From NCBI GenBank assembly GCA_964572385.1, contig CAZNFM010000035.1:1-40822 (forward strand): a DNA stretch of 40,822 nucleotides, in the 5' to 3' direction. Origin of the DNA: an uncultured Planctomycetaceae bacterium. Its GTDB lineage: Bacteria; Planctomycetota; Phycisphaerae; UBA1845; UTPLA1. The notes under the pieces are model-generated. The model was not told the DNA's origin, ran no database searches, and saw only the letters and a list, made by a program, of their open reading frames with translations. Positions 20,244-37,218 of this stretch are shown piece by piece (the stretch's first letter is position 1; each line of letters begins with the position of its first letter). Position numbers and translations under genes: made by a program.

Positions 20244-20549
20244 AAACATTGCCCCTTGAGGGCGCCGATAACGCTGTATGCCGCGATGCAGTTTGCTAAC
20301 TCTCCGTCTGCGGCGGCAGTGGAAGGCCGATCGGTCCCCGGACCAGGCGAGCGTCGAGGTGCGGGATCGGCGCTGGCATATATCTGACATGCCGGATCGT
20401 AGAATTTTGTAAGCGGGCGGGACTGGAATCAGCGGTGGCCAGGTCCGTTTCGGCCGAGGGAAGGTTTTGTCGACTAGTAAAGTCTGGTTTTAGCGGCGAC
20501 TGGCGGAGTATTGGATACCCTTCAGTCATTGCCGGGAGCAGGATGGCCC

Positions 20550-23216
20550 ATGGTGAGCGCTTCGAAGGAACGAGCGGTCTCGATCGACAAGGATGTTGAC
20601 TGCCAGGTCCGCGATGAGGAAGAGTTCGTTCTGACGGCCAACGCCGTCCGGGTGCTGCGGGCGCGATATCTGGAGAAGGACGAACGCGGCCAGGTTGTGG
20701 AAACACCTGATCAATTATTCGATCGGGTGGCCACGGCCATTGCGGACGTTGAGTTGAAATACGGCGGCAGCGAGGCAGTACGCAGCGAGTGGAAGGCGCG
20801 ATTCAAAAGGCTGATGACCTCGGGTCGCTTCATGCCCAACAGCCCGACGCTCATGAACGCCGGTCGCTCGATGGGCATGCTGAGTGCGTGTTTTGTTCTT
20901 CCTGTCCCCGATTCGGTCGACGGCATATTCGACGCCATCAAGAATACGGCGTTGATTCAGAAGGCGGGTGGCGGCACCGGTTTCGCGTTCGACTCGCTCC
21001 GGCCGACCGGCGACTACATCCGATCAAGCGGAGGTACGACCAGCGGACCGATCAGTTTCTGGCGGGCCTTCAGCGAAGCAACGAATGCGATCCAGCAGGG
21101 CGCTTTTCGGCGCGGGGCCAACATGGGCATGATGAACATTCATCATCCCGACATTCTCAAGTTTCTCCACGCCAAAGAAGACCTCACGCAGTTCACCAAC
21201 TACAACATCTCCGTCAAGGTGACGGACGAGTGGATGAAGGGCTTTAAGGAACAGCCGGATGCCCCGCATCGCACCCGCAATCCCCGCAACGGGCGGGAAT
21301 TCTTACTGCCCAAGTCTTTAGATATCAAGACGTACGACATCCGTCAGTTGCTTCCCGTGGAGGATTATGACGGCTCCGTTCCCGTTTATAGTCGACGCGA
21401 GGTGTGGGAGATCATCATCCGCAACGCCTGGCGGACTGGTGAGCCGGGGGTAGTCTTCATCGACCGGATCAATGAAGCCAACCCGACGCCGCACGTGGGG
21501 CGGATCGAGGCGACCAATCCATGTGGCGAGCAACCGCTGTTGCCGTACGAAGCCTGCAACCTGGGCAGCGTGAATCTCGGCCTGTTCGTCAGGCACGCCT
21601 GTTCACCTCAGGCGGAGGTGGACTGGGATGCTTTACGGGGGACCATTCACGACGCGGTCCGCTTCCTGGACAACGTGATCGATGCCAACAACTACCCGTT
21701 GCCGGAAATCAGCGACATCTGCAAGGCGAATCGCAAGATCGGCCTCGGGGTGATGGGCTTCGCCGATGCCCTCTTCAAGCTCAACGTGGCGTACAACTCG
21801 GAGGAGGGCGTGGCATGGGGCCGCCGTCTGATGGAGTTCGTCAACAACGAAGGACACAACTACTCGGAAAAGCTGGCTCACGAACGCGGTGACTTCCCGA
21901 ATTGGGCCAATAGCCATTGGGACACGCGGTACCGTCGGCGGATGCGCAACAGTTGCGTGACCACGGTCGCCCCGACCGGCACAATCAGCATCATCGCGAA
22001 TTGTTCCGGCGGCGTGGAGCCGCTGTTCAGCCTGGCTTTCTTCCGCAACGTGCTGCACGGCCAGGACGAAGGTCGTGGACCGATGATCGAGATCAACCAA
22101 ACCTTTGAGCGGGTAGCCCGCGAAAGGGGATTTTACAGCGAGGGCCTGATGGAACAGGTTGCCAGGGATGGCACCCTCGCTCATCTCGACGGCATTCCGG
22201 AAGACGTACGACGGGTGTTTGTCTGCGCCCACGACGTCACCGCCGAATGGCACATCCGCATGCAAGCGGCTTTTCAAGAACATTGCGATTCCTCCATTAG
22301 CAAGACAATCAACTTCCCCCATTCCGCGACCGTCGAGGACGTCGATCGGATCTACCGCATGGCGTTCGACCTACGTTGCAAGGGCGTCACGGTTTATCGC
22401 GATGGTTGTCGGGCCAATCAGCCGATGGCGCTGGCGGAATCGGACAAAAGGCATGAAGAGATGAACCAGGGTTCGGAAATGCGCGGCGAGGAGCTCCGGG
22501 AAGCTTCCGCGCCGGCCAAGGTCGAGATTGTCACCGAGACGAATCTGTTCGGAGAACGAATTACCGCGATCAAACCTCCCGCGACGGTTCTCGAACCGCG
22601 GGAGCTTCCGGCCATCACTAGCGGGATTCGCATCCGGCAGCAAACCCCGTTCGGCAACATGCACATCCAGATCACGGTCGATCCCCGCGAAGAGCGAGAA
22701 CTGGAGGTCTTCGCCCAACTGGGCAAGGGCGGAGATATTGCCACTAGTGATCTAGAGGCGATATGTCGTATGATTAGCCTATGGTTGAGGGCTGGCGGCC
22801 GACTCAATCACGTCATCAAGCAGTTGTCGGGCATCGGCTCGTCGTTGCAGATTCCGACTAAGCATGGCAGGATCATGTCCTTGGGCGATGGCTTGGCCCA
22901 CGCCCTCAAGCGTTATACGCGGGCCAAGGAGCGGTTTGGTCTCAAGGCCCTGCTGCTGGGGGAAATCGACCCAGAGGCTCTCGAGAATGACTCGGCTCAC
23001 AGCGAAAAGAAAAGCGGGCAAGGGAACGGCAATGGTGGTGGCAAAACGCCCCCCCCGGGGGATGTCACCTTGGCTGCTGCCCGATTGCTCGAAGCGGCCC
23101 CTCGCCCGACGTCGCTCCGCCAGAATTATCGAATTAAGTGTCCGGAATGCGGAGGAGATCTTGATACCGGCGAAAGCTGCGTGAAATGCCACGGCTGCGG
23201 CTATGCCCAATGCTGA
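20550..23216 (+). CDS. nrdJ: Adenosylcobalamin-dependent ribonucleotide reductase, class II (NrdJ), with a C-terminal zinc ribbon
   Basis: First ATG 20550 preceded by GGGAGCAGGATGG (the track start 20511 is TTG). RNR motifs include NPCGEQPL…EACNLGS (active-site Cys), TVAPTGTISIIANCSGGVEP and a C-terminal CPECGG…CVKCHGCGYAQC. No intein-like insertion is evident. Confidence 0.95.
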   Translation: MVSASKERAVSIDKDVDCQVRDEEEFVLTANAVRVLRARYLEKDERGQVVETPDQLFDRVATAIADVELKYGGSEAVRSEWKARFKRLMTSGRFMPNSPTLMNAGRSMGMLSACFVLPVPDSVDGIFDAIKNTALIQKAGGGTGFAFDSLRPTGDYIRSSGGTTSGPISFWRAFSEATNAIQQGAFRRGANMGMMNIHHPDILKFLHAKEDLTQFTNYNISVKVTDEWMKGFKEQPDAPHRTRNPRNGREFLLPKSLDIKTYDIRQLLPVEDYDGSVPVYSRREVWEIIIRNAWRTGEPGVVFIDRINEANPTPHVGRIEATNPCGEQPLLPYEACNLGSVNLGLFVRHACSPQAEVDWDALRGTIHDAVRFLDNVIDANNYPLPEISDICKANRKIGLGVMGFADALFKLNVAYNSEEGVAWGRRLMEFVNNEGHNYSEKLAHERGDFPNWANSHWDTRYRRRMRNSCVTTVAPTGTISIIANCSGGVEPLFSLAFFRNVLHGQDEGRGPMIEINQTFERVARERGFYSEGLMEQVARDGTLAHLDGIPEDVRRVFVCAHDVTAEWHIRMQAAFQEHCDSSISKTINFPHSATVEDVDRIYRMAFDLRCKGVTVYRDGCRANQPMALAESDKRHEEMNQGSEMRGEELREASAPAKVEIVTETNLFGERITAIKPPATVLEPRELPAITSGIRIRQQTPFGNMHIQITVDPREERELEVFAQLGKGGDIATSDLEAICRMISLWLRAGGRLNHVIKQLSGIGSSLQIPTKHGRIMSLGDGLAHALKRYTRAKERFGLKALLLGEIDPEALENDSAHSEKKSGQGNGNGGGKTPPPGDVTLAAARLLEAAPRPTSLRQNYRIKCPECGGDLDTGESCVKCHGCGYAQC

Positions 23217-23534
23217 TCGGAGATTCTGACCGCAGCGAGTGCGAACCTCCAGCCCGCCGCCCGTGTATACTTCCATGGCGAGTTCGCAGCATGGCTTCAT
23301 CGTGAGCCAGTCTACCGGCGAACGCCTCTTCAATCCGGCTTCTTTCCCCTCCGGAAAGCGCCGAGTTACCCCCAGAGGAACTTGGCGCTTTCTTTGTTCC
23401 CGCCACCCTCTCACCCCCGCTTCTGCCGTTTCTCGTGCCTCGGTATGCTGGGCAACCTCCGCCGCAGGAGCCCCACCGCCCATGAGACGGCGGTCGCCAG
23501 GCCGCGACAACGCTTACTGCGTCGAGGTCCCGAG

Positions 23535-25583
23535 ATGAACGACCATTCATCGCCGTCACTCCCCGCAGCGAGAGGAACGACCCGACCTGCTGCGGCCTTC
23601 GGCGTGCTGGTCGTGCTGCTCTGCCTGTTCGTGCTCTGGCGGCAACATCCTCGCCTGTCTGCGGTCTTTACGAGCGATCGCGTCTTCTTTGTCGATCCAG
23701 ACGATTACACGCGAGTCCATCGGGTCGAACAACTGATTTCCGGACAGGCCCGACGAATTGTACGCATGCCGGAGATCAATTATCCGGTCGGGCTTGACTC
23801 CCACTGGACTTCGCCGATGGATTACCTCTTGGTGGCCTCCTACCACATCTTCGGTCCCCTGATGCCGCACAAGGATCGGCTGGCCGCCGTGTCCGCCTGC
23901 CTGCCGGCCCTGGTCGGCTTGGTTTTCGTGGCGGGATTGGTCTGCTTCGTCCGGCGAGCAGCGGGCACTGCTTCCGCCACTCTGTGCGGACTGTTGGTGG
24001 TCTTATCGCCCGGTTTCTACAGGGTGTTCCAGCTTGGGCATCCGGACCATCATTGCCTGCTCGAACTCCTGCTGCTGGTCGCTTTCGGCTGCTGGTGGCG
24101 GGTCGGTTTTCCCCAGAACCCGGAGCATGTGGGCGCAGGCCGGGTCTCGGCGATCGCCAGCGGTTTGGCCATGGGTCTGGCAATCTGGGTCGCCGCTCAG
24201 GCTCTGCTCTTCTGGGCGGTCCTGCTGACGGGCCTGACCGCAGCAGGCTGGCTCGCGGCTCCCGGGTGTCGGCCGGCTTTTGTCCGGCTGCGGCTCTGGT
24301 GGGGAGGCAGCGTGGCCTTTGCCGTCGCGGTGGGGTTCCTGGTCGACAATTGGCCGGAGCTGAATGTGACCGCCATCGACCGAATCAGCGTCGTGCACGT
24401 GGCCGCGACGATGGTCGGTCTCCTCATGCCGGCACGCGGGCGGCCTTGGCGCCAAGCCTGGATTCTGAATCTGTGTTTCGTCGCCTCGTTAGTCGGGTTG
24501 ATCGGGTGGCTTGCGGCGAATCGTGAAAGCGTGTTTCAGTTCGTTCAAGGGGACGTCTTCCATCGCTGGTCCGCTCAGATTGCCGAACTACAGCCGCTCA
24601 TCGTCCGGAGCGGGCCGGAATGGTCGTTCGCGCCGATGCACGCCCGCCTGGGCCTGCTCCCGTATGCCTTCCCGTTACTGTGGTGGTTCTTCATGCAGTT
24701 TGAGCGCGTCTCTCTGGTGATGAGGGCCACCTTGGGACCGATCAGCGCCCTCGTCATGGTGCTCATCCTGTCGCAGCTCCGCTGGCTGGACCATTTTGGA
24801 TGGGCGGTGGCGCCGGTGGCGGGCATCGGGGTCTGGGGGCTGGTGACGCGCCGCAACCAGCAGGGTTCCGGGGCGAAGGGACGTTTTGCAATGGCGGCGG
24901 CGTTGCTTGCGCTGATGGTCGCCCCGGCTGCGTGGTGGATCCTCACGCTCACGCCGGATCGGGCGGTCGCGGCCAGTGCCCTCCAGGCTCGCACGGACTT
25001 TGCCGCGCGGCGAATCGCCGCACACGAAGAGGCCCATGCGTCCGGCAATCCCTGCCGGCAGGCCATTCTGTGCGATGAGGGCGAAGGCCCTGCGCTGTTG
25101 TACTGGACGGGCTTGCCGGTCGTGGCCGCGCCCTATCACCGGGGGTTGCAAGGTGTGCTCGAAGCTGCCGCATTCTTCGCGGAGAGAGACCCGGGGGCGG
25201 CAAGGGCTCGGCTGGATCGCCTGGGTGTTCGGTATATCGTGGTGCCAACCCGTCCTCACGAACAGCTCATGCAATTCGAACAGCTCGCTTTCGGTGAACT
25301 GCGGTCGTTCGACCCACCGGCCTGGGAACGGGATGAGTCTGGAAGCTGGCGGCCACAGCCTCGGTACCGACCGGAAGTAGTCCAGACCATGGCCTATCGG
25401 CTGGTCATGGCCGAAGGCACCGCGGCGATTCCCGGCGTGACGAAAATCGCGAGCATCGTGGAAGGAGAACCCGACGCCCAAGGGCGACGGATGAAAACGG
25501 GACTGGTATTTGTAGTGGATGACTTGCCGACGTCGGAGCAGCCCGCGACGGCACGACCGGGTGAAGTCCCTTCGCGACCATGA
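23535..25583 (+). CDS. Large polytopic membrane protein, possible GT-C-fold glycosyltransferase (STT3/ArnT-like)
   Basis: ATG 23535 with a GAGG SD (the track start 23382 is TTG). About 11-13 predicted TM helices. The first extracytoplasmic loop carries an acidic DxD-like motif (FFVDPDDYTRVHRVEQL), as in GT-C enzymes. A large C-terminal soluble domain follows. The functional call is tentative. Confidence 0.6.
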   Translation: MNDHSSPSLPAARGTTRPAAAFGVLVVLLCLFVLWRQHPRLSAVFTSDRVFFVDPDDYTRVHRVEQLISGQARRIVRMPEINYPVGLDSHWTSPMDYLLVASYHIFGPLMPHKDRLAAVSACLPALVGLVFVAGLVCFVRRAAGTASATLCGLLVVLSPGFYRVFQLGHPDHHCLLELLLLVAFGCWWRVGFPQNPEHVGAGRVSAIASGLAMGLAIWVAAQALLFWAVLLTGLTAAGWLAAPGCRPAFVRLRLWWGGSVAFAVAVGFLVDNWPELNVTAIDRISVVHVAATMVGLLMPARGRPWRQAWILNLCFVASLVGLIGWLAANRESVFQFVQGDVFHRWSAQIAELQPLIVRSGPEWSFAPMHARLGLLPYAFPLLWWFFMQFERVSLVMRATLGPISALVMVLILSQLRWLDHFGWAVAPVAGIGVWGLVTRRNQQGSGAKGRFAMAAALLALMVAPAAWWILTLTPDRAVAASALQARTDFAARRIAAHEEAHASGNPCRQAILCDEGEGPALLYWTGLPVVAAPYHRGLQGVLEAAAFFAERDPGAARARLDRLGVRYIVVPTRPHEQLMQFEQLAFGELRSFDPPAWERDESGSWRPQPRYRPEVVQTMAYRLVMAEGTAAIPGVTKIASIVEGEPDAQGRRMKTGLVFVVDDLPTSEQPATARPGEVPSRP

Positions 25584-25628
25584 ACCATCTTGATATACTC
25601 CAGACCCAGCCTGGTGTGAGGAAGAGCC

Positions 25629-27689
25629 ATGCCGTCTCCGGAGCAGGAGATCAGCGAACTACGAGAGCAGATCCGCCGCCATGATCACTTGTACTACGTG
25701 GAGGGTCGGCCGGTCATCTCCGACCGCGAATACGACCGTCTTTTCTCCCGGCTCAAGGAACTGGAATCCGCCCATCCGGAGCTGGTCACGCCAGACTCGC
25801 CTACGCAGCGGGTCGGCGGGGAGCCGCTGCAAGACTTCGCCCACGTGACGCACACCGTGCCGATGTTGTCGATTGACAACACCTATAACGAAGCGGACGT
25901 ACGAAAGTTCGACACGCAAGTGGCCAGGGGGCTGGAGGGCGAGCCGTACGAGTACTATGTCGACCCCAAAGTAGACGGCGTGTCGGCAGCGGTGCGGTAC
26001 GAAGACGGGATGCTTGTGCTGGGCGCCACTCGCGGCGACGGCCGCACCGGCGATGACATCACGGCGAACATCAGAACGATCCGTGCGATTCCTCTTCGCC
26101 TGCGAGGGACGGACTGGCCCCGCGTGCTGGAGGCGCGGGGCGAGGTGTATTGGCCTCGGCCTCTTTTCGATGCGCACAATGAGCAGCGCGAGAGCCAGGG
26201 GCTGGAACGCTTCGCCAACCCTCGCAATGCGACTGCCGGCTCACTCAAATCGTTGGACCCCAAGGTCATTGCCCAGAGAGGACTGGCGTTCGTGGCACAC
26301 GGTCTGGGTGTTGTGGAAGACGCGGCCTTCACCACCGCCGAGGAGGTTTTCGCCGCGTTCAAACGCTGGGGGATTCCCGTTAGCCCGTACGGTCGGGTCT
26401 GTGTGAATATCGACGAGGTGCTCCGCTTCATCGCGGACTGGGATCGGAAACGCCACGAGCTGGAGTTTGAAACGGACGGACTGGTCATCAAGGTGAACCG
26501 CCTGGATCAGCGGGAGCGACTCGGGGCGACCAGCCGTTGCCCCCGCTGGTGCATCGCCTACAAGTATGCGGCGGAGCAGGCGGAGAGCCGCCTGCTGGCC
26601 GTCGATTTCCAGGTTGGCAAGCAGGGTACGATCACGCCGCGGGCCGTCATGGAGCCGGTCCAGCTTTCCGGTACGACCGTTCGTCACGCCAGCCTGCACA
26701 ACTTCGACCAGGTCGAGCGGCTGGATGTCCGCATCGGGGACACAGTTCTCGTCCAGAAGGCGGGCGAGATTATTCCTCAGGTCGTTGGCGTCGTTATGGA
26801 GAAAAGGCCGCCGAACGCCCAAAAAGTACTCCCGCCAACGGAGTGTCCGGTGTGCAAAGAGGCCGTGATCAGAGACGAAGGCGGAGTATATCTTCGCTGC
26901 ATCAACCCTGCCTGCACCGCCCAACTGAAGGAGCGGCTGAAGCACTTCTGCGGGCGTGACCAGATGGATATCGAGGGCGCCGGGGAAGTGTTGCTCGACC
27001 AATTGGTAGACAAAGGTTATGTGCGGCAATTTGCCGATCTGTATTCATTGGCCGAGCGTCGCAGCGAGATCCTGGGCGAGGCCCCGACGGAGTCGAGAAC
27101 CGGCGGCCCCGGCGGGAGACTCGAACGCGTAGGGCCGAAGTCCTTCGAGAACCTGCTGGCGGCGATCGAGGAAAGCAAGAGCCGGCCGCTTTCTCGCTTG
27201 TTGGCCGCACTGAATATCCGCCACGTCGGCAAGGCAACGGCCGAGTTGATTGCCGCCCATTTCGGCGATTTGGAGCGAATCGCCGAGGCCTCGATGGAGG
27301 AGTTGCAGCAGGTAGACGGCGTCGGTCCGGAGGTAGCCCGCTCGGTAGATCAGTTCTTCCGCAACCCCGCGGGTCGTCAGACGTGGATGGCCCTTCGGGA
27401 GGCGGGAGTGAACATGACCCAACCCCGGGCAGAGACCGGTAGCCCACAGCCCTTGGCGGGCAAGACAGTGGTGGTAACCGGCGTTTTGAGCGGCCTCAGC
27501 CGGACCGAAGTTGAGAAGTTGGTCAAGGACTTGGGCGGCAAGACTTCCGGCAGCGTCAGCAAGAAGACATCCTTCGTAGTCGCCGGAGCCGATCCCGGAA
27601 GCAAACTTCAAAAAGCTCGGGAGCTGGGCGTGCCCGTGCTGAACGAAGCGGAGTTCCGCAAGATGATCGGTCGCGAGGCATTGGAATAG
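25629..27689 (+). CDS. ligA: NAD-dependent DNA ligase LigA
   Basis: GAGGAAG SD. Adenylation motif DPKVDGVSAAVRYEDG (KxDG); OB, Zn-finger (CPVCKE…CINPAC), HhH and a C-terminal BRCT (KTVVVTGVLSGLSRTEVEKLVKDLGGK). Confidence 0.97.
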   Translation: MPSPEQEISELREQIRRHDHLYYVEGRPVISDREYDRLFSRLKELESAHPELVTPDSPTQRVGGEPLQDFAHVTHTVPMLSIDNTYNEADVRKFDTQVARGLEGEPYEYYVDPKVDGVSAAVRYEDGMLVLGATRGDGRTGDDITANIRTIRAIPLRLRGTDWPRVLEARGEVYWPRPLFDAHNEQRESQGLERFANPRNATAGSLKSLDPKVIAQRGLAFVAHGLGVVEDAAFTTAEEVFAAFKRWGIPVSPYGRVCVNIDEVLRFIADWDRKRHELEFETDGLVIKVNRLDQRERLGATSRCPRWCIAYKYAAEQAESRLLAVDFQVGKQGTITPRAVMEPVQLSGTTVRHASLHNFDQVERLDVRIGDTVLVQKAGEIIPQVVGVVMEKRPPNAQKVLPPTECPVCKEAVIRDEGGVYLRCINPACTAQLKERLKHFCGRDQMDIEGAGEVLLDQLVDKGYVRQFADLYSLAERRSEILGEAPTESRTGGPGGRLERVGPKSFENLLAAIEESKSRPLSRLLAALNIRHVGKATAELIAAHFGDLERIAEASMEELQQVDGVGPEVARSVDQFFRNPAGRQTWMALREAGVNMTQPRAETGSPQPLAGKTVVVTGVLSGLSRTEVEKLVKDLGGKTSGSVSKKTSFVVAGADPGSKLQKARELGVPVLNEAEFRKMIGREALE

Positions 27690-27722
27690 CGATCGCTTCG
27701 GAAAAGACGAAGTCGAGGTGAG

Positions 27723-28499
27723 ATGGTTGCGACAATCCCAACGCGACGGTTGATCGGGCGGCAGGTTGGCAGAGTCGGGTCGTGGCCGTTGCGCATTCGT
27801 GCCGTCTTGGCATTGCTCACACTGGCCGGCCTCGTCGGCTGCGGCGGGCCGCCGCACCGCACGAAGATCTCGGAACTGGATCCGCACGTTGGCGCCTACC
27901 CAGGTCGCGAATCGCCGCTGCCGGCCCGCCCGGAGAAGCCGTCCCCACGTCGTCCCAGTGGTCCGGCCAGCGTTGTCGTGGACGCGGGACACGGCGGCCG
28001 GGATCCCGGCGCGCAGGGACTCTCGGCACTGCCCGAGAAAACGATCAACCTGCGCATTGCCCTGAAGCTGGCCGACAAACTGAAGGCTCGCGGAATCACG
28101 GTCGAGACGACCCGCACGACCGATGTATTTCTCGAGCTGGCGGACCGGGCCGCCAAGGCGGATCGCGCTCGAACGGGCCTCTTTGTCTCGATTCACGCCG
28201 ATGCCAATCCCAAACCTCAGATCTCCGGGACCACCGTATACATCGCTCGCAACGCCGGCGCGGAAAGCGTTCAGGCCGGGCGCAGCATCGTGACTGCCCT
28301 GGAGCGGGCGGGCATCGAATGTCGAGGCCTGGGTCGAGCGAACTACCGCGTCCTGGTGGGTCATTCCCGGCCCGCCGTGCTGGTGGAGTGCGGCTTCCTG
28401 ACCAACAGAGCGGAAGCGGCCAAGTTGAATACTGAGGCCTATCAAGAGAGGGTCGCGGCGGCCATCGCGGAGGGAATCGCGGATTTCTTCGGGCGGTGA
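27723..28499 (+). CDS. N-acetylmuramoyl-L-alanine amidase (Amidase_3 family) lipoprotein
   Basis: GAGGTG SD. Lipobox LAGLVGC. Amidase_3 motifs VVVDAGHGGRDPGA, …FVSIHADA…, TEAY. Confidence 0.9.
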   Translation: MVATIPTRRLIGRQVGRVGSWPLRIRAVLALLTLAGLVGCGGPPHRTKISELDPHVGAYPGRESPLPARPEKPSPRRPSGPASVVVDAGHGGRDPGAQGLSALPEKTINLRIALKLADKLKARGITVETTRTTDVFLELADRAAKADRARTGLFVSIHADANPKPQISGTTVYIARNAGAESVQAGRSIVTALERAGIECRGLGRANYRVLVGHSRPAVLVECGFLTNRAEAAKLNTEAYQERVAAAIAEGIADFFGR

Positions 28500-28528
28500 T
28501 TCCGGTCGCACTACGGTGAGCAAGGGTA

Positions 28529-28573
28529 GTCTGTCGCGCAGCGTCGGTCCGTGCTACACTCTCAGCGACAGAC
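28529..28573 (+). promoter_or_regulatory. Long-stem inverted repeat in the leader of the first uvrA-like gene
   Basis: GTCTGTCGC (28529-28537) and GCGACAGAC (28565-28573) form a perfect 9-bp inverted repeat separated by 27 nt. It lies 13 nt upstream of ATG 28586 and may be an operator or structured leader. Confidence 0.25.
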
Positions 28574-28585
28574 GGCCCCTGCGAC

Positions 28586-30544
28586 ATGGAACCCGAGAAC
28601 ATAGAAGTCCGGAATGCTCGCCAGCACAATCTCCGCAACGTCTCCGTGACGCTGCCGCGGAATCGACTCATCGTCTTCACCGGCGTGAGCGGCAGCGGCA
28701 AGAGTTCGCTTGCCTTCGACACGCTCTACGCGGAAGGGCAGCGCCGCTACATCGAGTCGCTTTCCGCCTATGCCCGCCAGTTCATCGGTCAGATGCAGAA
28801 ACCGGATTGCGACCTGATCACCGGGCTGTCGCCCTCCATCGCGATCGAGCAGAAGTCAACCGGATGGAACCAGCGCTCCACGGTGGGAACCCTCACGGGA
28901 ATCATGGATTTTCTGCGGGTTCTCTATGCTCGAGTCGGTCGGCAGCATTGTCCGGAGTGCGGGCGGCCCATCGCCGCGCAGTCTCGAGAGCAAGTCGTGG
29001 AGAGCATTCTGCGGGGCCACGCTTCGTCTGGCGGTTCAACCACTGCTCCAGCGGCTCGAGTGCTGATCCTGGCGCCGGTGGCACGCGGGCAGAAGGGGGA
29101 GTTTCGCGATCTATTTGACGATCTCATTCGGACAGGATACGTCCGTGCGCGGGTCGACGGCCGCGTCGTGTCCCTACGCGAAGCCCCGGCCTTGCAGAAA
29201 AACCAGCGCCACAACATCGACTTGGTGATCGACCGTTTGGAAATCGGCGAGAACAATCGGGGTCGACTGGCCGAGGCGGTTGACGCGGCGTTGCGGTTGG
29301 GCAAGGGCACGCTGATCGTTTCTCCGGACGACCCGGGGGTGGCCGAAACGCCTGAAAGGCAACGGCGAAGCGGGCAGAGCATGGATCGCGTGTTTTCCTC
29401 TCGCTATGCCTGCTCGGTGTGCGAACTGTCGCTCGAGCCGCCGACGCCGCAGTTATTTTCCTTCAACTCGCCCAGCGGCATGTGCCACTCCTGCGATGGG
29501 CTCGGCGAGCAGTTCGACTTCGATCCGGATCTGCTTGTGCCGGATGCCTCGCTCAACTTCTGGGCGCCCTGCGTGGCGCCCTTGCGCACGAAGATCGGCA
29601 GATGGCGGCGGCACATCTACGAAGGCGTGGCTCGCGCACTCGGCGTCGATCTCGACCAGCCGTGGAGGGATCTGCCCGCTTCCGCTCGCCGGGCCTTATT
29701 GCAGGGCACGGGGGACCGGCACATCACCTATGAATGGCGATGGTCAAAGGGCACCTGGAGACACGGCGGCAAATTCGAGGGCGTGATCGAGGAGTTGCGC
29801 CAGAAGTACCGCCAGGCCAAGGCCCCGTTCATCAGGCGGTATTACGAGAGGTTCATGACGCGCCGACCATGCCCGGCTTGCGAAGGGGGACGGCTCAACG
29901 CACAGGCGCTGGCGGTACACTTGCCGGTCAAGGGGGCCAGTCGGGGACCGAGCATCCGCGAATTCGCGGCCTTGTCGGTGAAGGCCGCGTGGGACTTGCT
30001 GACGCGGTTGGAGCTGACGCCCGTGCAGCGGATTATCGCCGAGGACCTGCTCAAAGAAGTGGGGGCCCGGCTGGAATTTCTGCTGAACGTGGGGTTGCAT
30101 TATCTGGCGCTGGAGAGGACCGCACCGACGCTCAGTGGCGGCGAGTTGCAGCGTATTCGCCTGGCCGGGCAGATCGGCGCGGGGCTGGCCGGCGTGCTGT
30201 ATGTCCTCGATGAACCGTCGATCGGATTGCATCCGCGCGACAACCAGCACCTGCTGGAAAGCTTGGGTCGGCTGCGGGACCTCGGCAACACGGTCATCGT
30301 GGTCGAGCACGACGAGGCGACGATGTGCGCCGCCGACCATATCGTGGACTTCGGTCCCGGCCCGGGTGTGAGGGGAGGACGGATCGTGGCCGAAGGCTCG
30401 TACGCGGAGATCGTCGGCAACGCCGAGTCGCTGACGGGGCGATACCTGAGTGGCCGGGAGGAAATCCCCATCCCGACGCGGCGCCCGGTGGTCGTAAACC
30501 GCCGACGACGTAGCCGGGAAAGGAATGCAAAGCAGCCGAAGTGA
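28586..30544 (+). CDS. uvrA: UvrA-like protein consisting only of ABC module I (N-terminal half of excinuclease ABC subunit A, including the UvrB-binding and insertion domains)
   Basis: 652 aa. Walker [35 protein letters not shown], Zn modules (CPECG…, CSVC…CHSCDG, CPACEGG), signature LSGGELQRIRLA, Walker B LYVLDEPSIGLHPRD and H-loop VEHD. Ends …LTGRYLSGREEIPIPTRRP, exactly where canonical UvrA continues into module II, then a basic tail and a stop. Confidence 0.9.
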   Translation: MEPENIEVRNARQHNLRNVSVTLPRNRLIVFTGVSGSGKSSLAFDTLYAEGQRRYIESLSAYARQFIGQMQKPDCDLITGLSPSIAIEQKSTGWNQRSTVGTLTGIMDFLRVLYARVGRQHCPECGRPIAAQSREQVVESILRGHASSGGSTTAPAARVLILAPVARGQKGEFRDLFDDLIRTGYVRARVDGRVVSLREAPALQKNQRHNIDLVIDRLEIGENNRGRLAEAVDAALRLGKGTLIVSPDDPGVAETPERQRRSGQSMDRVFSSRYACSVCELSLEPPTPQLFSFNSPSGMCHSCDGLGEQFDFDPDLLVPDASLNFWAPCVAPLRTKIGRWRRHIYEGVARALGVDLDQPWRDLPASARRALLQGTGDRHITYEWRWSKGTWRHGGKFEGVIEELRQKYRQAKAPFIRRYYERFMTRRPCPACEGGRLNAQALAVHLPVKGASRGPSIREFAALSVKAAWDLLTRLELTPVQRIIAEDLLKEVGARLEFLLNVGLHYLALERTAPTLSGGELQRIRLAGQIGAGLAGVLYVLDEPSIGLHPRDNQHLLESLGRLRDLGNTVIVVEHDEATMCAADHIVDFGPGPGVRGGRIVAEGSYAEIVGNAESLTGRYLSGREEIPIPTRRPVVVNRRRRSRERNAKQPK

Positions 30545-31227
30545 GAATGCTAAGGAGCCGGCCGTCGACACGCAACGTCGGGGCAGACTGTTGGACGAAC
30601 AGACTCGCTCGCGGGCGCCTCAGGAGCGCGGTCGCCTGATGCGGCAGTTCATCGTCCCGGCGATGAACCCGGCGAAGCGGTTTCGTACTATGTGCGTGCT
30701 CATGGACCGGGCCATCGTGCAGACCGGAGAGAAGCGAGGGTGGGAGCGGGGTGCATGACCGGACAAAGTTGGCGATGCGTGGAGTCCTCGCGGTACGCAT
30801 CTTGCGGCGGGGCGGTGCGAAGCGGCGCTTGCGGTCGCGGGTTTCTCTTTCTCAGCAATGCTGAGAATGGCAATTGGCCTGACGCGCGATGGCGAGTTCG
30901 CAAGCAGATGGCCAAGGCGGAGTGGAGCGGGCGGTGCATTCGATCAGAGCCGCCGTGGCGCCTTGCCGAAATCCTGCCGCATTTTCGAGCCGGCGACGTC
31001 AAGACCGCTGCGTTCCGACCCGGGGAAGGTTGGCGGGAATTGGAAGTGCGGAAACAGGATGATTGCGGGTGCTCTCTCCGGGAGGTCAGTTTGAAGAGAC
31101 TGAGCTCGTCACCGCCGGAAGCTCATTCCTGTCACAGATGTGAGTTCCCGATGGACCAGACCGATCTGCACGCGCTGAAATCGCCAATCCAAGTTGTTCT
31201 GTGCGAATTCCCGGATGCCGGCGCGCT

Positions 31228-34200
31228 ATGAGTCCCAAACGAACTCCTGCTCGACCACAGACCGCTGTCACCGCAAGCCCATCTGCGGGCAAGGTGTGCT
31301 GTCCGTGGCTAACCATCCGCGGGGCTCGCCACAACAACCTCAAGAACCTTGACGTGTCAGTTCCACTCGGGCGGTTCGTCTGCGTGACCGGCGTCTCCGG
31401 CTCCGGCAAGTCCTCGCTGGTGAACGACATTCTCTACGAGCAACTCGCCGCCGATCTCAACGGTCTTACCGGGGTGCACCCCGGTCGCCATCGTTCGATC
31501 GAGGGCAAGGAGCATCTGGACAAGGTCATCGGCATAGACCAGTCGCCGATCGGGCGAACCCCGCGAAGCAACCCGGCGACCTACGTCAAGGTCTTCGACG
31601 AGATCCGTGACTTATTCGCCCGGCTGCCGGACAGTCGAGTCCGCGGCTATCAGCCGGCCCGCTTCAGTTTCAACGTCGCCACCGGCGAGCGCGGCGGTGG
31701 TCGGTGCGAGGCCTGCGAAGGCAACGGGGCCAACCGCGTGGAAATGGAGTTCCTTGCGGATGTTTGGGTGACGTGCCCCGTCTGCGGCGGCCGCCGATTC
31801 AACCAGGAAACGCTCCAGATTCAATTCAAGGGCAAGAGCATCCACGACGTGCTCGAAATGGACGTGCAGGAGGCCCTGCGGCATTTCGAGAGCATCCCCA
31901 AGGTGCGAGCCATGCTGGCCACGCTCCAGGAGGTCGGCCTGGACTACCTGAAACTGGGCCAGTCGAGCACCACGCTTTCCGGAGGCGAGGCCCAGCGAAT
32001 CAAACTGGCGCGCGAGCTGGTCCGGCGCAGCACCGGCCGGACCCTGTATATTCTCGATGAGCCGACCACGGGCCTGCACTTCGATGACGTCCGCCGCCTG
32101 CTCACGGTGCTGCATGGCTTCGTGGATGCCGGCAACACGGTGGTGGTCATCGAGCACAATCTCGACGTGATCAAGACGGCAGACTGGGTGATCGACTTGG
32201 GGCCGGAAGGCGGAGACGACGGTGGCGAGGTGGTCGTCGCGGGAACGCCCGAAGATGTGCAGAAATGTCGCCGTTCGCACACCGGACAGGCGCTGCGAGA
32301 GGCCCAGATGCGCCGATTTGTGGCGAGTGCCGAGAAACAAGCCCGGGCTTCCAAGCTCACCACCGCAGGCAAGAGCAACACCCCAGCGGCCACCGGGCTT
32401 GCCTCCCACGGATGCTCCGCGCCAAGGCTCTCCGGCGCCGAGATCGTCGTGGTGGGGGCCCGCGAGAACAACCTTCGCAACCTCACGGTTCGCGTGCCGC
32501 GAAGCCGGATGACGGTGTGTTCCGGCGTCTCGGGCAGCGGCAAGACCAGCTTTGCACTGGACACGGTTTATACCGAAGGCCAACGCCGCTACATGGAGTC
32601 TCTGTCCGCATACGCCCGTCAGTTCCTCGGGCAACTCCAGAAGCCCAAGGTGGATCACATCCACGGCTTGTCGCCGGCCGTCGCGATCGAACAACAAGCG
32701 GCCAGCAAGAGTCCCCGTTCCACGGTGGGCACGGTCACGGAAATTTATGACTACATGCGGGTATTGTGGGCACGAGTGGGCCGCCCCTACTGCCCGCAAT
32801 GCGGCGTGCCGGTGGAGAGGCAGACGAGCGACGAGATCCTCGAACAGATCATGAGCCTGCCTGCGGGCACACGGCTGCTGCTTTGCGCGCCGATTGAGAG
32901 TTCTCCTGGTGACACCTGGGCCGCGGTGTTCGAGCGATGCCGGGCCCAAGGCTATACTCGGGCTCGGGTAGACGGTCACGTCGTGGAGTTGGCGGCCTCG
33001 CCTGAAATCGACAGTCGACAGAGACACCGCGTGGAGCTGGTGGTCGACCGCATTGAGGTGCGGGCGGCTTCTCGTTCGCGTATCGGAGATTCGGTTGAAC
33101 ACTGCCTGGCCATGGGGCGCGGCGTCATGTGGGCGGTGCCGGCGGGCCATTCCGGCCGAGCGGACGAGTTCAGGGAAACCTCACCCGACCGAAGTGTGCG
33201 CGACAGTGCTCGAAGATTCTCGCAACACCGATCGTGTCCGGAGTGCGGTGCCGGCTTCACCGAATTGACTCCCCACCATTTCAGCTTCAATTCCCGACTG
33301 GGCTGGTGCCCAGCGTGCGAGGGGCTCGGCGTGCAGCGCGGCACGACCGTTGACACCATCATCGCACGGCCCCAGCAGTCGATTGTCGGCGGAGCTATCG
33401 TCGGATGGGAGGACGTCTCCCGGCGGCCCTTATTCCGGCGCATCCTGCTGGCCTTGGCCCGGGCGATCGGCATTGATCCCGAGGCGCCCTGCGCATCCCT
33501 GACGCCGGCTCAACGGCATGATCTCTTGTTCGGTCTGGGGGAACGCTGGATCGACACGGTGGCGGAAAAGGTAGAGAATGAGGCGGTCGGCCAACCCAGC
33601 CTACGATTCCAATGGAAAGGGTTCTTTCCGGCAATCGATGAGGCTACGCGGGCATCGTGGGAGTACCGCTATCGTTTGCAGGACCTGGCGGCGGACACCG
33701 TCTGCCAGGCCTGTCGTGGGGGACGGCTGCGTCCGGAGGCCGCGGCGGTTCGCCTGGAGGACAGCAACGGAGGGAAAGGAACGAGCATCGTGGAGGCGTG
33801 CCGCATGCCGCTGGCGGCGGCGGCCGCTTTCTTCGAGTCCCTCCGGCTGGACCGCCGGCAGGCGCGCATCGCTGGGGAACTCCTGCACGAAATCAAGTCC
33901 CGGTTGCGATTCCTTCTGGATGTCGGCTTGGAGTATCTCTCGCTGGATCGATCAGCGCCGACGCTCTCGGGCGGGGAGTCACAACGGATTCGCCTCGCGT
34001 CGCAGATCGGCAGCGGATTGACCGGCGTCCTTTACGTCCTGGACGAGCCAACCATCGGGCTGCATCCACGCGACAACCAGCGGCTCGTGAAAGCCCTTCA
34101 CAGGTTGCGGGATCTCGGCAACACCCTGTTGCTTGTCGAACACGACCGCGAGGTGATCGAATCGGCGGATCACCTGCTCGACTTCGGCCCCGGCGCCGGT

Positions 34201-36576
34201 CGGGAAGGCGGCGAGATCGTGGCCGCCGGTTCGCCCCGACAGATTGCCCGTCAAAGCCGCTCACCACGAGCCCGTCGCGCCCGGGTCACAGAAACGGCCG
34301 GCGACTCTGGCGCGCACGTCAAAGCGACGGATTCAGTGGGGACCTCGGTGACGGGTCGCTACCTCGCAGGCGTGGACGCGATTCCCGTGCCGACCAACCG
34401 TCGTCCAATCGGTGTTCCGCCTGATCAGGGGGAAACGAGCCGTGCGGCGGGCGGCACCGAAACGTTGAGACCCGAACTGGATGCTCGCGGGGCTGGGAAT
34501 TCGCGGGAACCGGACGTGCAGCACTGGCTGATCATCCGAGGCGCTCGGCATAACAATCTGCGCGGAATCGACGTCGCCTTCCCCTTGGGCCGGTTCATCT
34601 GCGTGACCGGTGTCTCCGGTTCAGGCAAGTCCTCGCTGATCACGGAGACTCTGCAACCGGCCCTCGCGGCCCGCATTCATCGCGTTCGCGCTGCCCCGGG
34701 TGACCACGATCGCCTGGTAGGTGTCGAGCACATCGACAAAGTCATCACGGTGGACCAGCAGCCGATCGGCAGCAGCCCGATGTCCAACCCTGCGACCTAC
34801 ACCGGCGTGTTCGACTTGTTGCGCGAGATCTTCGCCCGCCTGCCGGAAAGCCGCGTTCGCGGGTACACCGCCAATCGATTCAGTTTCAACCGTCCGGGCG
34901 GGCGATGCGAAGGCTGTGACGGTTACGGGCAGGTCTACTATGAGATGCACTTCTTGCCCGACGTCTGGGTACCCTGCGAAACATGCGAGGGCAAGCGTTA
35001 CAACCGCGAGACGCTCGAGGTGCGTTACAAGGGCCTGAACATCGCGGAAGTGCTGGAGTTGCCCGTGAGCGAGGCGCTGCGGCATTTTGCCAATGTGCCG
35101 AAGGTTCGTCGCATGTTGCAGACGCTGGAAGACGTGGGACTGGGCTACCTGCCGCTTGGCCAAGGGGCGCCGACCCTCTCCGGAGGCGAGGCCCAGCGGC
35201 TCAAGTTGGCGGCGGAGCTGGGCCGTCCCAATACCGGCCGAACCATCTACTTCCTCGATGAACCCACCACCGGCTTGCACTTCGAGGACCTGCGAAAACT
35301 GCTGGGCGTGCTTCACCGCTTGGTTGATCTGGGCAACACTGTCATCTGCATTGAGCATAACCTGGAGCTCCTCAAGACCGCGGATTACGTGATCGACCTG
35401 GGACCGGAAGCCGGGGACCAGGGCGGCATCGTGGTCGCCGCAGGGCCGCCTGAAACGGTGGCCCAAGCTGCCGCCTCCCACACCGGCCGCCTGCTCCGGA
35501 AGATACTGGCGGCTGGTCCGCATCGAGAAAGGAAGCCGTTCGAACCGCACCGCTCCGTGTCAGCGCCGGAGGTCGGTTCCGGTTCCGATTTGCAAGCGAC
35601 GGAGTCCGTCCAGATGCCCTGGGAGCGGGACGGCCGCCGCTGGCACACCGCCCTGCGACCCAGCCGCGAGGGCCGGCCGGTCCGCTGGGAGGCCGCGGCG
35701 CTGGAGTACGTGGTGGAGCGGATCGAGCGGATCGGCCGGAATCGCCTTCTGCCCACCGACTGGGCGGATCGGGCGCGGGTGGAGATCAAGGCGCGGGCGC
35801 CGGCTGGGCTGCCGCAGACTGCGGTGCCGTGGTTCTGTCACATCCTCACCGGGGGTGAATGGTTGTTGGATCTGCTGTTCCGAGTACCGCATGGCGTTTT
35901 CGACCCACGAAGCCTGGAGGCGGAGTTGGGGCTGAAGAGGATTGAGGAACGCAACGATATCCCAGCATACGGGGTAAACAGCCGGGTGCTGGTCCGTGCC
36001 GCCGTTGCCGACCTGGACCAAGTCCGCATTCTGGTGCATGATCGCCGGGAAGTGGCGACCGCCGCATTCAGAGGTTTCCTCTCACGGGCCTGGCAAGCCT
36101 ACTCCAGTCATCTCGAGCGATTGGCGCAGGATGCCGCGGGAGCGGAACCCTGGAAACAGGACGGCAAGGCCTGGCACCTGTCGCAGCGTTCCATTCCATC
36201 CAGCCAACCCAGGGTGTGGAAACCCCTGACGCTGGTGACGTTCCTGGGACTCATTTCGCGAATGGCCCCCGGGATCCGACCCTTGTGGGACCGCAAAGTC
36301 TTCGTTGAGCTGGTTGATGCCGCGGGCCGCCGAGTGGGCAAGATCATCACCAACCAAGGCGCGGAACTTCGCGTGGATCTACACGTTCCTCGGGGAGCGC
36401 TGACGCCGACCCGCGTCGAGAGCCTGGGGCGTCGGCAGGAGTTCGCCAGGCCCGGAAGCAGTGGCGCGGAGTTGACGTTCTGGTTTGCGGGCCTCGACGA
36501 AGTGGATCAGCAACAGCTTCGCCTGGCAATTGAGTCGGCCGCCTCCGCAGCCGCCGGGGCCCCGTCGCCTCCTTGA
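31228..36576 (+). CDS. uvrA: Giant UvrA-family fusion (1791 aa from the upstream GTG at 31201): UvrA ABC module II, then a complete second UvrA (modules I+II), then a ~350-aa C-terminal domain of unknown function
   Basis: First ATG at 31228; an in-frame GTG lies at 31201. Residues ~30-365 are UvrA module II ([17 protein letters not shown]…[21 protein letters not shown] Zn finger, [50 protein letters not shown]-terminus-like [15 protein letters not shown]). A ~45-aa linker follows. Residues ~415-1440 are a full UvrA: module I ([10 protein letters not shown]…[68 protein letters not shown]) and module II ([12 protein letters not shown]…[45 protein letters not shown]). The last ~350 aa have no recognisable family. 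Confidence 0.9.
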
Positions 36577-36633
36577 CGGATGGGCATCCGCGCCACCCTT
36601 GCCGCCAGACTTGTTCCGGCGACAATCATATTC

Positions 36634-37218
36634 ATGGCGAAGCAAGCCCTGCCCGGCCTTCTGGAAGTGGTTCACGGGTCGATGTTCGGCGGCAAGACCG
36701 AGTACATGATCGCACGCTTACGTGAGGAAGAAGCCCGCGGCAGGCGGGTCCGGGCTTTCAAACATGTGATCGACGATCGGTACGATCCGGACCACCTCGT
36801 GACCCATCGCAAGGACCGTTTCGCGGCGACCCGTGTGGCGACAGCCGAGGAACTCCTCAGCGAATCGGAGGGTTATGAGGTCGTGGCCATCGACGAGGGG
36901 CATTTCTTCACGCCCGCTCTCGTCGAGGTGGTCCGAGCAATCCGGGAACGATGTCTGGTGGTGATCGTAGCTGGGATCACGCACGATGCCTGGGGGCGGC
37001 GGTTCGCTCCCATTCCGGAGCTGGCTCGCATGGCGGATCGGGAGATCCTGCGGCAGGCGCCGTGCTCGATCTGTGGGGAACCATCTCCTTTCACCCAGCG
37101 TATGACTCCGGTGAGGTCGGCCCACATGGTCGGTGGATTAGGAGACTACGAGCCGCGTTGCGCCCTTCATTTCGAACCCCTTACCGAAGCTGTCGGGGAC
37201 GCCTTCGGGCGGAGGTGA
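36634..37218 (+). CDS. tdk: Thymidine kinase
   Basis: P-loop FGGKTEYMIAR, VIAIDEGHFF, and the C-terminal zinc ribbon of type II Tdk (CSICGEPSPFTQRM…CALH). ATG 36634 is preferred over the upstream in-frame ATG 36580, which lies only 4 nt after the uvrA-fusion stop. Confidence 0.9.
   Translation: MAKQALPGLLEVVHGSMFGGKTEYMIARLREEEARGRRVRAFKHVIDDRYDPDHLVTHRKDRFAATRVATAEELLSESEGYEVVAIDEGHFFTPALVEVVRAIRERCLVVIVAGITHDAWGRRFAPIPELARMADREILRQAPCSICGEPSPFTQRMTPVRSAHMVGGLGDYEPRCALHFEPLTEAVGDAFGRR

Follow-up and report, generated by a model that had tools for sequence, protein, structure and literature searches.

UvrA is among the best-studied DNA-damage sensors and, to our knowledge, its domain inventory is considered complete. 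What, then, is the stretch of about 350 residues that prolongs a UvrA protein encoded in the 40,822-nucleotide (nt) contig CAZNFM010000035.1 of an uncultured Planctomycetaceae bacterium (assembly GCA_964572385.1)? The whole contig is called the window below, and the extension, first pointed out in a preliminary description of the sequence, is called the tail. The tail is a real, translated and lineage-specific part of planctomycete UvrA, which is conserved across Planctomycetota and is so far in no family database. It consists of a flexible acidic linker tethering two basic alpha/beta domains, EN and EC, which arose by tandem duplication. The gene and the parts of its tail are the following, with AlphaFold2 confidence given as the predicted local distance difference test (pLDDT).

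31228..36576, + strand: long UvrA open reading frame (ORF), uvrA piece B, with the ABC-II half of UvrA copy 1, the complete UvrA copy 2 and the tail
35503..35616, + strand: linker (tail residues 1–38), opening with a conserved LxxGPxxxR; the rest is variable, acidic and, by prediction, disordered; pLDDT 38–66
35617..36138, + strand: domain EN (tail residues 39–212), with the PWxxDGxxWH motif, helix alpha1, a sheet of five strands that contains an inserted helix, and a long helix at the C-terminus
36139..36558, + strand: domain EC (tail residues 213–352), a shorter paralogue of EN with the same topology and a PWxxxGxxWH motif
36559..36576, + strand: short unconserved end (APSPP) and TGA stop

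Reading frame and distribution of the tail

The + strand ORF 31201..36576 ran through 1791 codons without interruption. It was open from a GTG at 31201, and the likely start is the ATG at 31228, which overlaps the end of a small upstream ORF in an ATGA arrangement. The last UvrA motif ended near nt 35505 and was followed by approximately 357 further in-frame codons down to the TGA stop at 36574–36576, in agreement with the extension of about 350 residues initially proposed. The GC content by codon position was 0.71/0.52/0.76 in the tail and 0.68/0.50/0.77 in the UvrA part, so that the coding-like third-position value (GC3) reported for the tail was found again. The translation of 31201..36573 reached 1770 bits with the UvrA model NF001503 (cut-off 1147) and 1706 bits with TIGR00630 (cut-off 730), both with E = 0, and the Pfam families UvrA_inter and UvrA_DNA-bind also matched the long ORF. 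This UvrA identity belonged to residues 1 to approximately 1434 and excluded the tail. The tail alone (35503..36573) matched none of the Pfam and NCBIfam families at E ≤ 1, including the model NF001885 of the 1809-aa chlamydial UvrA, and a search of the chain sequences of the PDB with the tail profile gave no match at E ≤ 10. The view that the tail could not be assigned to any known family was thus upheld.

Relatives of the tail were difficult to collect with word-indexed protein searches, which gave just 8, 23 and 1 matches, and an exhaustive HMMER search was needed. The eight relatives of the first word-indexed search were all C-terminal fragments of UvrA, one of them named “excinuclease ABC subunit A [Phycisphaerae bacterium]”. 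The exhaustive search, run with a tail-only profile against 1.84 billion cluster representatives, yielded 461 proteins at E ≤ 1e-3, including 108 at E ≤ 1e-30. Among the representatives inspected, which excluded the 311 lower-scoring ones, the tail was located at the extreme C-terminus of the long matches (1063–2343 aa), and the shorter ones started within the ABC-II sequence of UvrA. When one genome of each GTDB species was scanned, 467 genomes had a relative, and the best 80 were inspected at the locus level. Of these 80 loci, 78 were labelled Planctomycetota (Phycisphaerae, Pirellulales, Gemmatales and the isolate Anatilimnocola sp. NA78), and the two exceptions were bins of metagenome-assembled genomes labelled Binatia and Alcaligenaceae.

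The ABC-II half of UvrA copy 2 and the tail shared a single ORF in every locus with enough sequence, and more than 60 related loci carry UvrA ABC-II and the tail in this form. This bears on the question, raised in the preliminary description, of a constant fusion to UvrA-like modules: the two parts were in frame in every complete case, and a rare homologue of the domain alone was held by another protein, described below. Nor did the tail turn out to be one of the things that would have overturned the first interpretation, namely a widespread annotated domain, a linker of low complexity or a gene of its own produced by frameshifts.

Two proteins first looked like stand-alone tail proteins and were rejected. 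P0074 begins 13 nt from a contig end, and P0077 is a fragment of a frameshift-ridden assembly in which UvrA is broken into many pieces. A third candidate, P0040, taken as a fusion to TrmE, was also discarded, as its TrmE/GTPase matches were sub-threshold and an ABC domain precedes the tail.

In the Phycisphaerae-type loci, the median identity to the window was 72% for ABC-II, 46% for EN and 38% for EC. The tail is therefore constrained, yet faster-evolving than the UvrA core. One locus, on contig CAZUQM010000056.1, was related to the window but distinct from it, with a single blastn segment at 78% and a tail identity of 40%.

A linker and two homologous domains

The AlphaFold2 model of the tail, calculated from an 8-sequence alignment, had a mean pLDDT of 82.8. 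It showed a low-confidence segment at residues 1 to approximately 38, followed by two well-predicted alpha/beta domains at approximately 39–212 and 213–352, EC being modelled with a pLDDT of 82–94. The predicted template modelling score was 0.53, so that the orientation of EN and EC relative to each other is undefined. A repeated PW(E/K)xDGxxWH motif was visible by BLASTP within the tail. When profiles of the two halves, built from 32 sequences, were compared with hhalign, EN and EC aligned over 136 columns with a probability of 99.2% (E 1.5e-19), and EC was also matched by the EN hidden Markov model in all the full-length proteins. One domain has therefore been duplicated in tandem to form the tail, and EN carries an additional insert with a helix. 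The extra module initially proposed was indeed a genuine in-frame addition to UvrA, but not a single domain.

The linker was acidic, with a family median isoelectric point (pI) of 4.5 and a net charge of −3. The two domains were basic: EN had a median pI of 9.35 and a median net charge of +4, and EC a median pI of 10.07 and a median net charge of +7. The positions conserved in at least 90% of 78 sequences were, in EN, P39, W40, G44, W47, H48, W62, L67, E94, W110, F111, H113, T116, L122, R127, L147, Y156, G157, R161 and A196. Equivalent positions reached the same level in EC (P216, W217, G221, W224, H225, L226, W239, W262, T283 and G309), as did L2, P6 and R10 in the linker. In the protein P0002, an insertion of about 70 aa made of SKSQNVKT-like repeats (tail residues ~80–150) interrupted EN in the loop that links helix alpha1 to strand 1. 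This loop therefore tolerates large low-complexity inserts.

Single-domain variants were found when a metagenome scan was made with single-domain seeds. In the lineage formed by loci L088–L110, the layout was the same, with ABC-II, UvrA and EN, and the ORF ended after EN without EC. Locus L084 also possessed EN only, and there the gene for the N-half and the gene for ABC-II and EN were separated by two genes on the opposite strand. The idea of one tail domain per UvrA unit was rejected, since L088–L110 with the same 1.5-UvrA ORF have EN only, and likewise L084. In several of these EN-only loci, no same-strand piece-A gene was seen in the 5 kb upstream.

A homologue of the tail domain was present outside UvrA, in a 1095-aa GmrSD-type restriction protein (L120; metagenome contig JACXTT010002801.1, 7556..10843). 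This protein contained GmrSD_N (E 2.9e-29), an HNH-like motif and a weak match to an OLD-type TOPRIM domain. Its segment starting EPWKVDGRKWHLEQR aligned to the EC profile over 84 columns (hhalign probability 96.2%, E 2.4e-9), and a weak match to the MGMT/ATL-like family DNA_binding_1 (E 0.05) came after it. The match to the 8-residue seed follows from the way the scan was made; this does not hold for the flanking PW..DG residues or for the profile alignment over 84 columns. From this alignment, the tail-domain family also occurs, rarely, in another DNA-targeting enzyme; just one further fragment of this type was found. The neighbours, a DUF4011-helicase-restriction endonuclease protein, an ADP-ribosylglycohydrolase/phosphatase, an HNH protein and HsdM, constitute a defence island.

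The split double UvrA and its neighbours

The UvrA fusion originally described turned out to be incomplete, as the long ORF is only part of a split double UvrA, the first N-half of which is encoded by a separate upstream gene. The neighbouring features are the following.

28586..30544, + strand: uvrA piece A, 652 aa (UvrA_inter 2e-31 and UvrA_DNA-bind 4.6e-24, Pfam)
30692..31231, + strand: small ORF between the uvrA pieces, up to 179 aa, within a 650-nt gap; its TGA overlaps the ATG at 31228 (ATGA)
36634..37218, + strand: tdk, thymidine kinase (PF00265, E 1.7e-28, domain from residue 27)
20511..23216, + strand: ribonucleotide reductase with a TSCPD domain
23382..25583: STT3-like membrane protein (weak match), between the ribonucleotide reductase and the ligase
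25629..27689, + strand: NAD-dependent DNA ligase

Piece A corresponded to the N-half of UvrA copy 1, with the Walker A of ABC-I, the UvrB-interaction domain, the insertion/DNA-binding domain and signature I. The 1791-aa ORF opened with the ABC-II half matching piece A and continued with a complete second UvrA. A double UvrA resulting from the fusion of two uvrA genes has been described in planctomycetes on the basis of Pfam domains, and this description mentions only the doubling, not the C-terminal 350 aa (PMC8567305). The drawing of this published architecture used Pfam, which has no tail model; no mention of the tail was found in the literature. As in the published double UvrA and in class I UvrA (TIGR00630/NF001503), all the canonical domains are present: the approximately 1430 residues upstream of the tail together with the gene 28586..30544 make two units with ABC-I, UvrB-interaction, insertion/DNA-binding and ABC-II domains. 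What differs, here and in the Phycisphaerae-type genomes, is copy 1, which is carried by two genes with the break between ABC-I and ABC-II. The split was present as in the window in all Phycisphaerae-type loci, the pieces being separated by anything from an overlap to a gap of about 2 kb. It is therefore a conserved feature and not an error. In the Pirellulales and Gemmatales loci, all four UvrA halves and the tail were in one ORF of 2350–2470 aa. When UvrA segments and the tail were mapped onto stop-to-stop ORFs, the B1-B2-B3-E architecture was kept in about 60 loci.

The small ORF 30692..31231 had a GC3 of just 0.63, an odd composition rich in Cys, Trp and Arg, and no Pfam match. A homologue was seen in one relative only (L024, 3932..4816), with 31% identity over 173 aa (E 2e-22) and the same ATGA geometry. 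The gap region 30300..31400 gave no Rfam match. On the other side, the tdk ORF was open from an ATG at 36580, and its likely start is the ATG at 36634, 58 nt past the stop of the tail, which fits the few tens of bases first reported. The uvrA locus lay within a run of + strand genes of DNA metabolism covering positions 20511..37218.

Predicted fold and possible roles of the tail

The fold predicted for EN and EC is that of the YdhG/YjbR/frataxin/MotA-CTD group, a “double-wing” alpha/beta sandwich. The models display the sandwich that defines YjbR/MmcQ (PF04237, DUF419). A “double-wing” fold like that of CyaY has been described for YjbR/DUF419, with a predicted DNA binding of the MotCF kind (PMC7641849), and YjbR is structurally linked to the base-flipping McrB-N domain (PMC3424535). 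In the C-terminal domain of T4 MotA (MotCF) and in the N-terminal domain of McrB, the fold type is the same as that predicted for EN and EC, and it contacts DNA. The sequence identity to the YjbR/MmcQ structures 2fki, 2a1v and 2kfp was 7–11%, and the tail domains differ from them by an additional N-terminal PWxxDGxxWH element and, for EN, by the inserted helix. YjbR proteins occur alone or joined to EVE, TerB or GNAT, and not to UvrA. In Escherichia coli K-12 (NC_000913.3, 4270658..4273871), yjbR (PF04237) and uvrA are convergent, with 35 bp between their 3' ends; this is an anecdote and maybe a coincidence. Compared with the YdhG-like/DUF1801 proteins and frataxin (CyaY, Nqo15), the tail domains were without sequence similarity, basic instead of acidic, arranged in tandem, and fused to a repair ATPase.

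Searches at the sequence level were negative for the known members of this fold group. The search of the PDB sequences with the tail profile was empty at E ≤ 10, including for the three YjbR structures, and frataxin (PF01491) was matched neither by the window tail at E ≤ 1 nor by 71 members at E ≤ 5. Weak matches to HTH_32 (PF13565) in 6 of the 71 members, the best with 23.6 bits (E 7.8e-5) compared to a gathering threshold of 33.7 bits, were rejected. They all fell on the segment from PWxxDGxxWH to alpha1, which is predicted there to be part of the sandwich domain, with no separate helix-turn-helix. Judged by these sequence tests and those on PF04237 and PF08818 given below, EN and EC form a new domain family of known fold, and membership in YjbR/DUF419 or in the YdhG-like family fails. 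These two families are nevertheless their closest counterparts in structure and function.

We propose, with moderate confidence, that the tail would serve as an accessory module for nucleic-acid binding or DNA tethering, attached to a UvrA which is a covalent pseudo-dimer. This proposal is based on the DNA-binding neighbours of the fold, the charge, the conserved aromatic and basic residues of the sheet, and the restriction-enzyme context of the homologue. In this model, the flexible acidic linker would tether the basic EN and EC domains behind the ABC-II half of the second UvrA unit. EN and EC would provide this pseudo-dimer, made here by the products of genes A and B, with further contacts to DNA, and they might modulate its scanning or its retention on DNA near lesions. 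Among the kinds of module evoked in the preliminary description, a DNA-binding, interaction or regulatory one is compatible with these observations; a nuclease or another enzymatic effector finds no support, with no match to catalytic families and a fold group that is non-enzymatic.

Several observations weigh against a DNA-binding role. The models of EN and EC were built on shallow alignments of 8–12 sequences, and a Foldseek search of the two-domain model against the PDB returned nothing significant. The best structural neighbour (YdhG-like/frataxin) binds proteins or metals, not DNA, and this is also the case of other neighbours, namely type III secretion chaperones, Mediator subunits and FP domains. 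Neither PF04237 nor PF08818 was matched by the window tail at E ≤ 1 or by the 71 members at E ≤ 5, and in hhalign comparisons with the single YjbR sequence of E. coli the EN and EC profiles obtained probabilities of 0.3% and 0.1%, respectively. The basic charge is not universal among the members, with pI values down to 5.5–5.9. Finally, EC is missing from one lineage, through loss or from the outset, so that having two domains is not essential.

The main alternative, possible though in our opinion less likely, is that the tail is instead a protein–protein adaptor, which would hold or recruit another factor such as UvrB/UvrC, RNA polymerase or Mfd, the separate piece A, or an anchor in the nucleoid or membrane. 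Many neighbours of the EN/EC fold bind proteins, and an unusual fractionation of planctomycete nucleotide excision repair (NER) proteins has been reported (PMC8567305). The tail is, however, also present with a single unsplit UvrA ORF (L071–L080), so that joining pieces A and B is no specific need for it. DNA is the better fit for the basic charge and for the homologue in a GmrSD restriction protein, and the conserved gene neighbourhood points to no partner.

A doubtful possibility would be that EN and EC constitute a hitherto unrecognised family of “readers” of DNA lesions or modified bases, characterised by PWxxDGxxWH and a sheet lined with Trp, His and Arg, and common to NER and modification-dependent restriction, the latter through the GmrSD-type enzyme in which the homologue is adjacent to the ATL/MGMT-like domain. 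If so, planctomycete UvrA would have an extra damage-sensing surface, mechanistically unlike canonical UvrA.

The resemblance to frataxin and YdhG could also suggest an iron or zinc chaperone, for example servicing the zinc fingers of UvrA or sensing the metal or redox state, which we regard as very improbable. Frataxins act via an acidic ridge. Judged from sequence charge, EN and EC showed no frataxin-type ridge along helix 1 and strand 1: their median pI is basic, and the acidic residues of helix alpha1 are unconserved. Beyond the single His48, His113 and His225, there was no conserved cluster of Cys, His or Asp, and neither PF01491 nor PF08818 was matched.

There is equally little chance that translation starts internally at Met38, just before PW, and makes the tail at least in part as a protein of its own, or that the tail is a separate gene fused here by error. 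A Met preceded PW in 64 of 78 sequences, and Shine–Dalgarno-like words were present within 18 nt upstream in 31% of cases versus 8% at control internal ATGs. In the remaining 14 sequences, however, the residue was Leu, Val, Phe or Ala, and the Shine–Dalgarno-like words peaked at −24..−19 and +6..+11, which reflects conserved codons and not a correctly spaced signal. The apparent stand-alone proteins were the artefacts mentioned above, and more than 60 loci keep one ORF. Finally, a non-functional read-through or degenerate remnant, which the faster evolution relative to the UvrA core and the lack of EC in one lineage could evoke, can practically be dismissed in view of the conservation across classes of the phylum (Trp, His, Arg and Gly positions at 90% or above), the confidently predicted globular folds and the coding-like GC3.

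The whole protein is a new variant of UvrA, and the kind of system is a known one. Throughout a phylum, UvrA is a covalent double unit and also has, at its end, two additional domains, conserved and basic, for which the databases offer no model. The tail deserves a family model, as thousands of “excinuclease ABC subunit A” annotations now hide it. The domain boundaries, the models and the conserved residues make the difference from canonical UvrA testable, and the tail module is found within a single ORF in Pirellulales isolates, Anatilimnocola sp. NA78 (L078) being an example. If EN and EC bind a partner, this may explain the unusual fractionation of planctomycete NER proteins. If they bind DNA or lesions, as we propose, they would represent an alternative way to tune the search for damage in NER and a new family in the “double-wing” DNA-binding fold.
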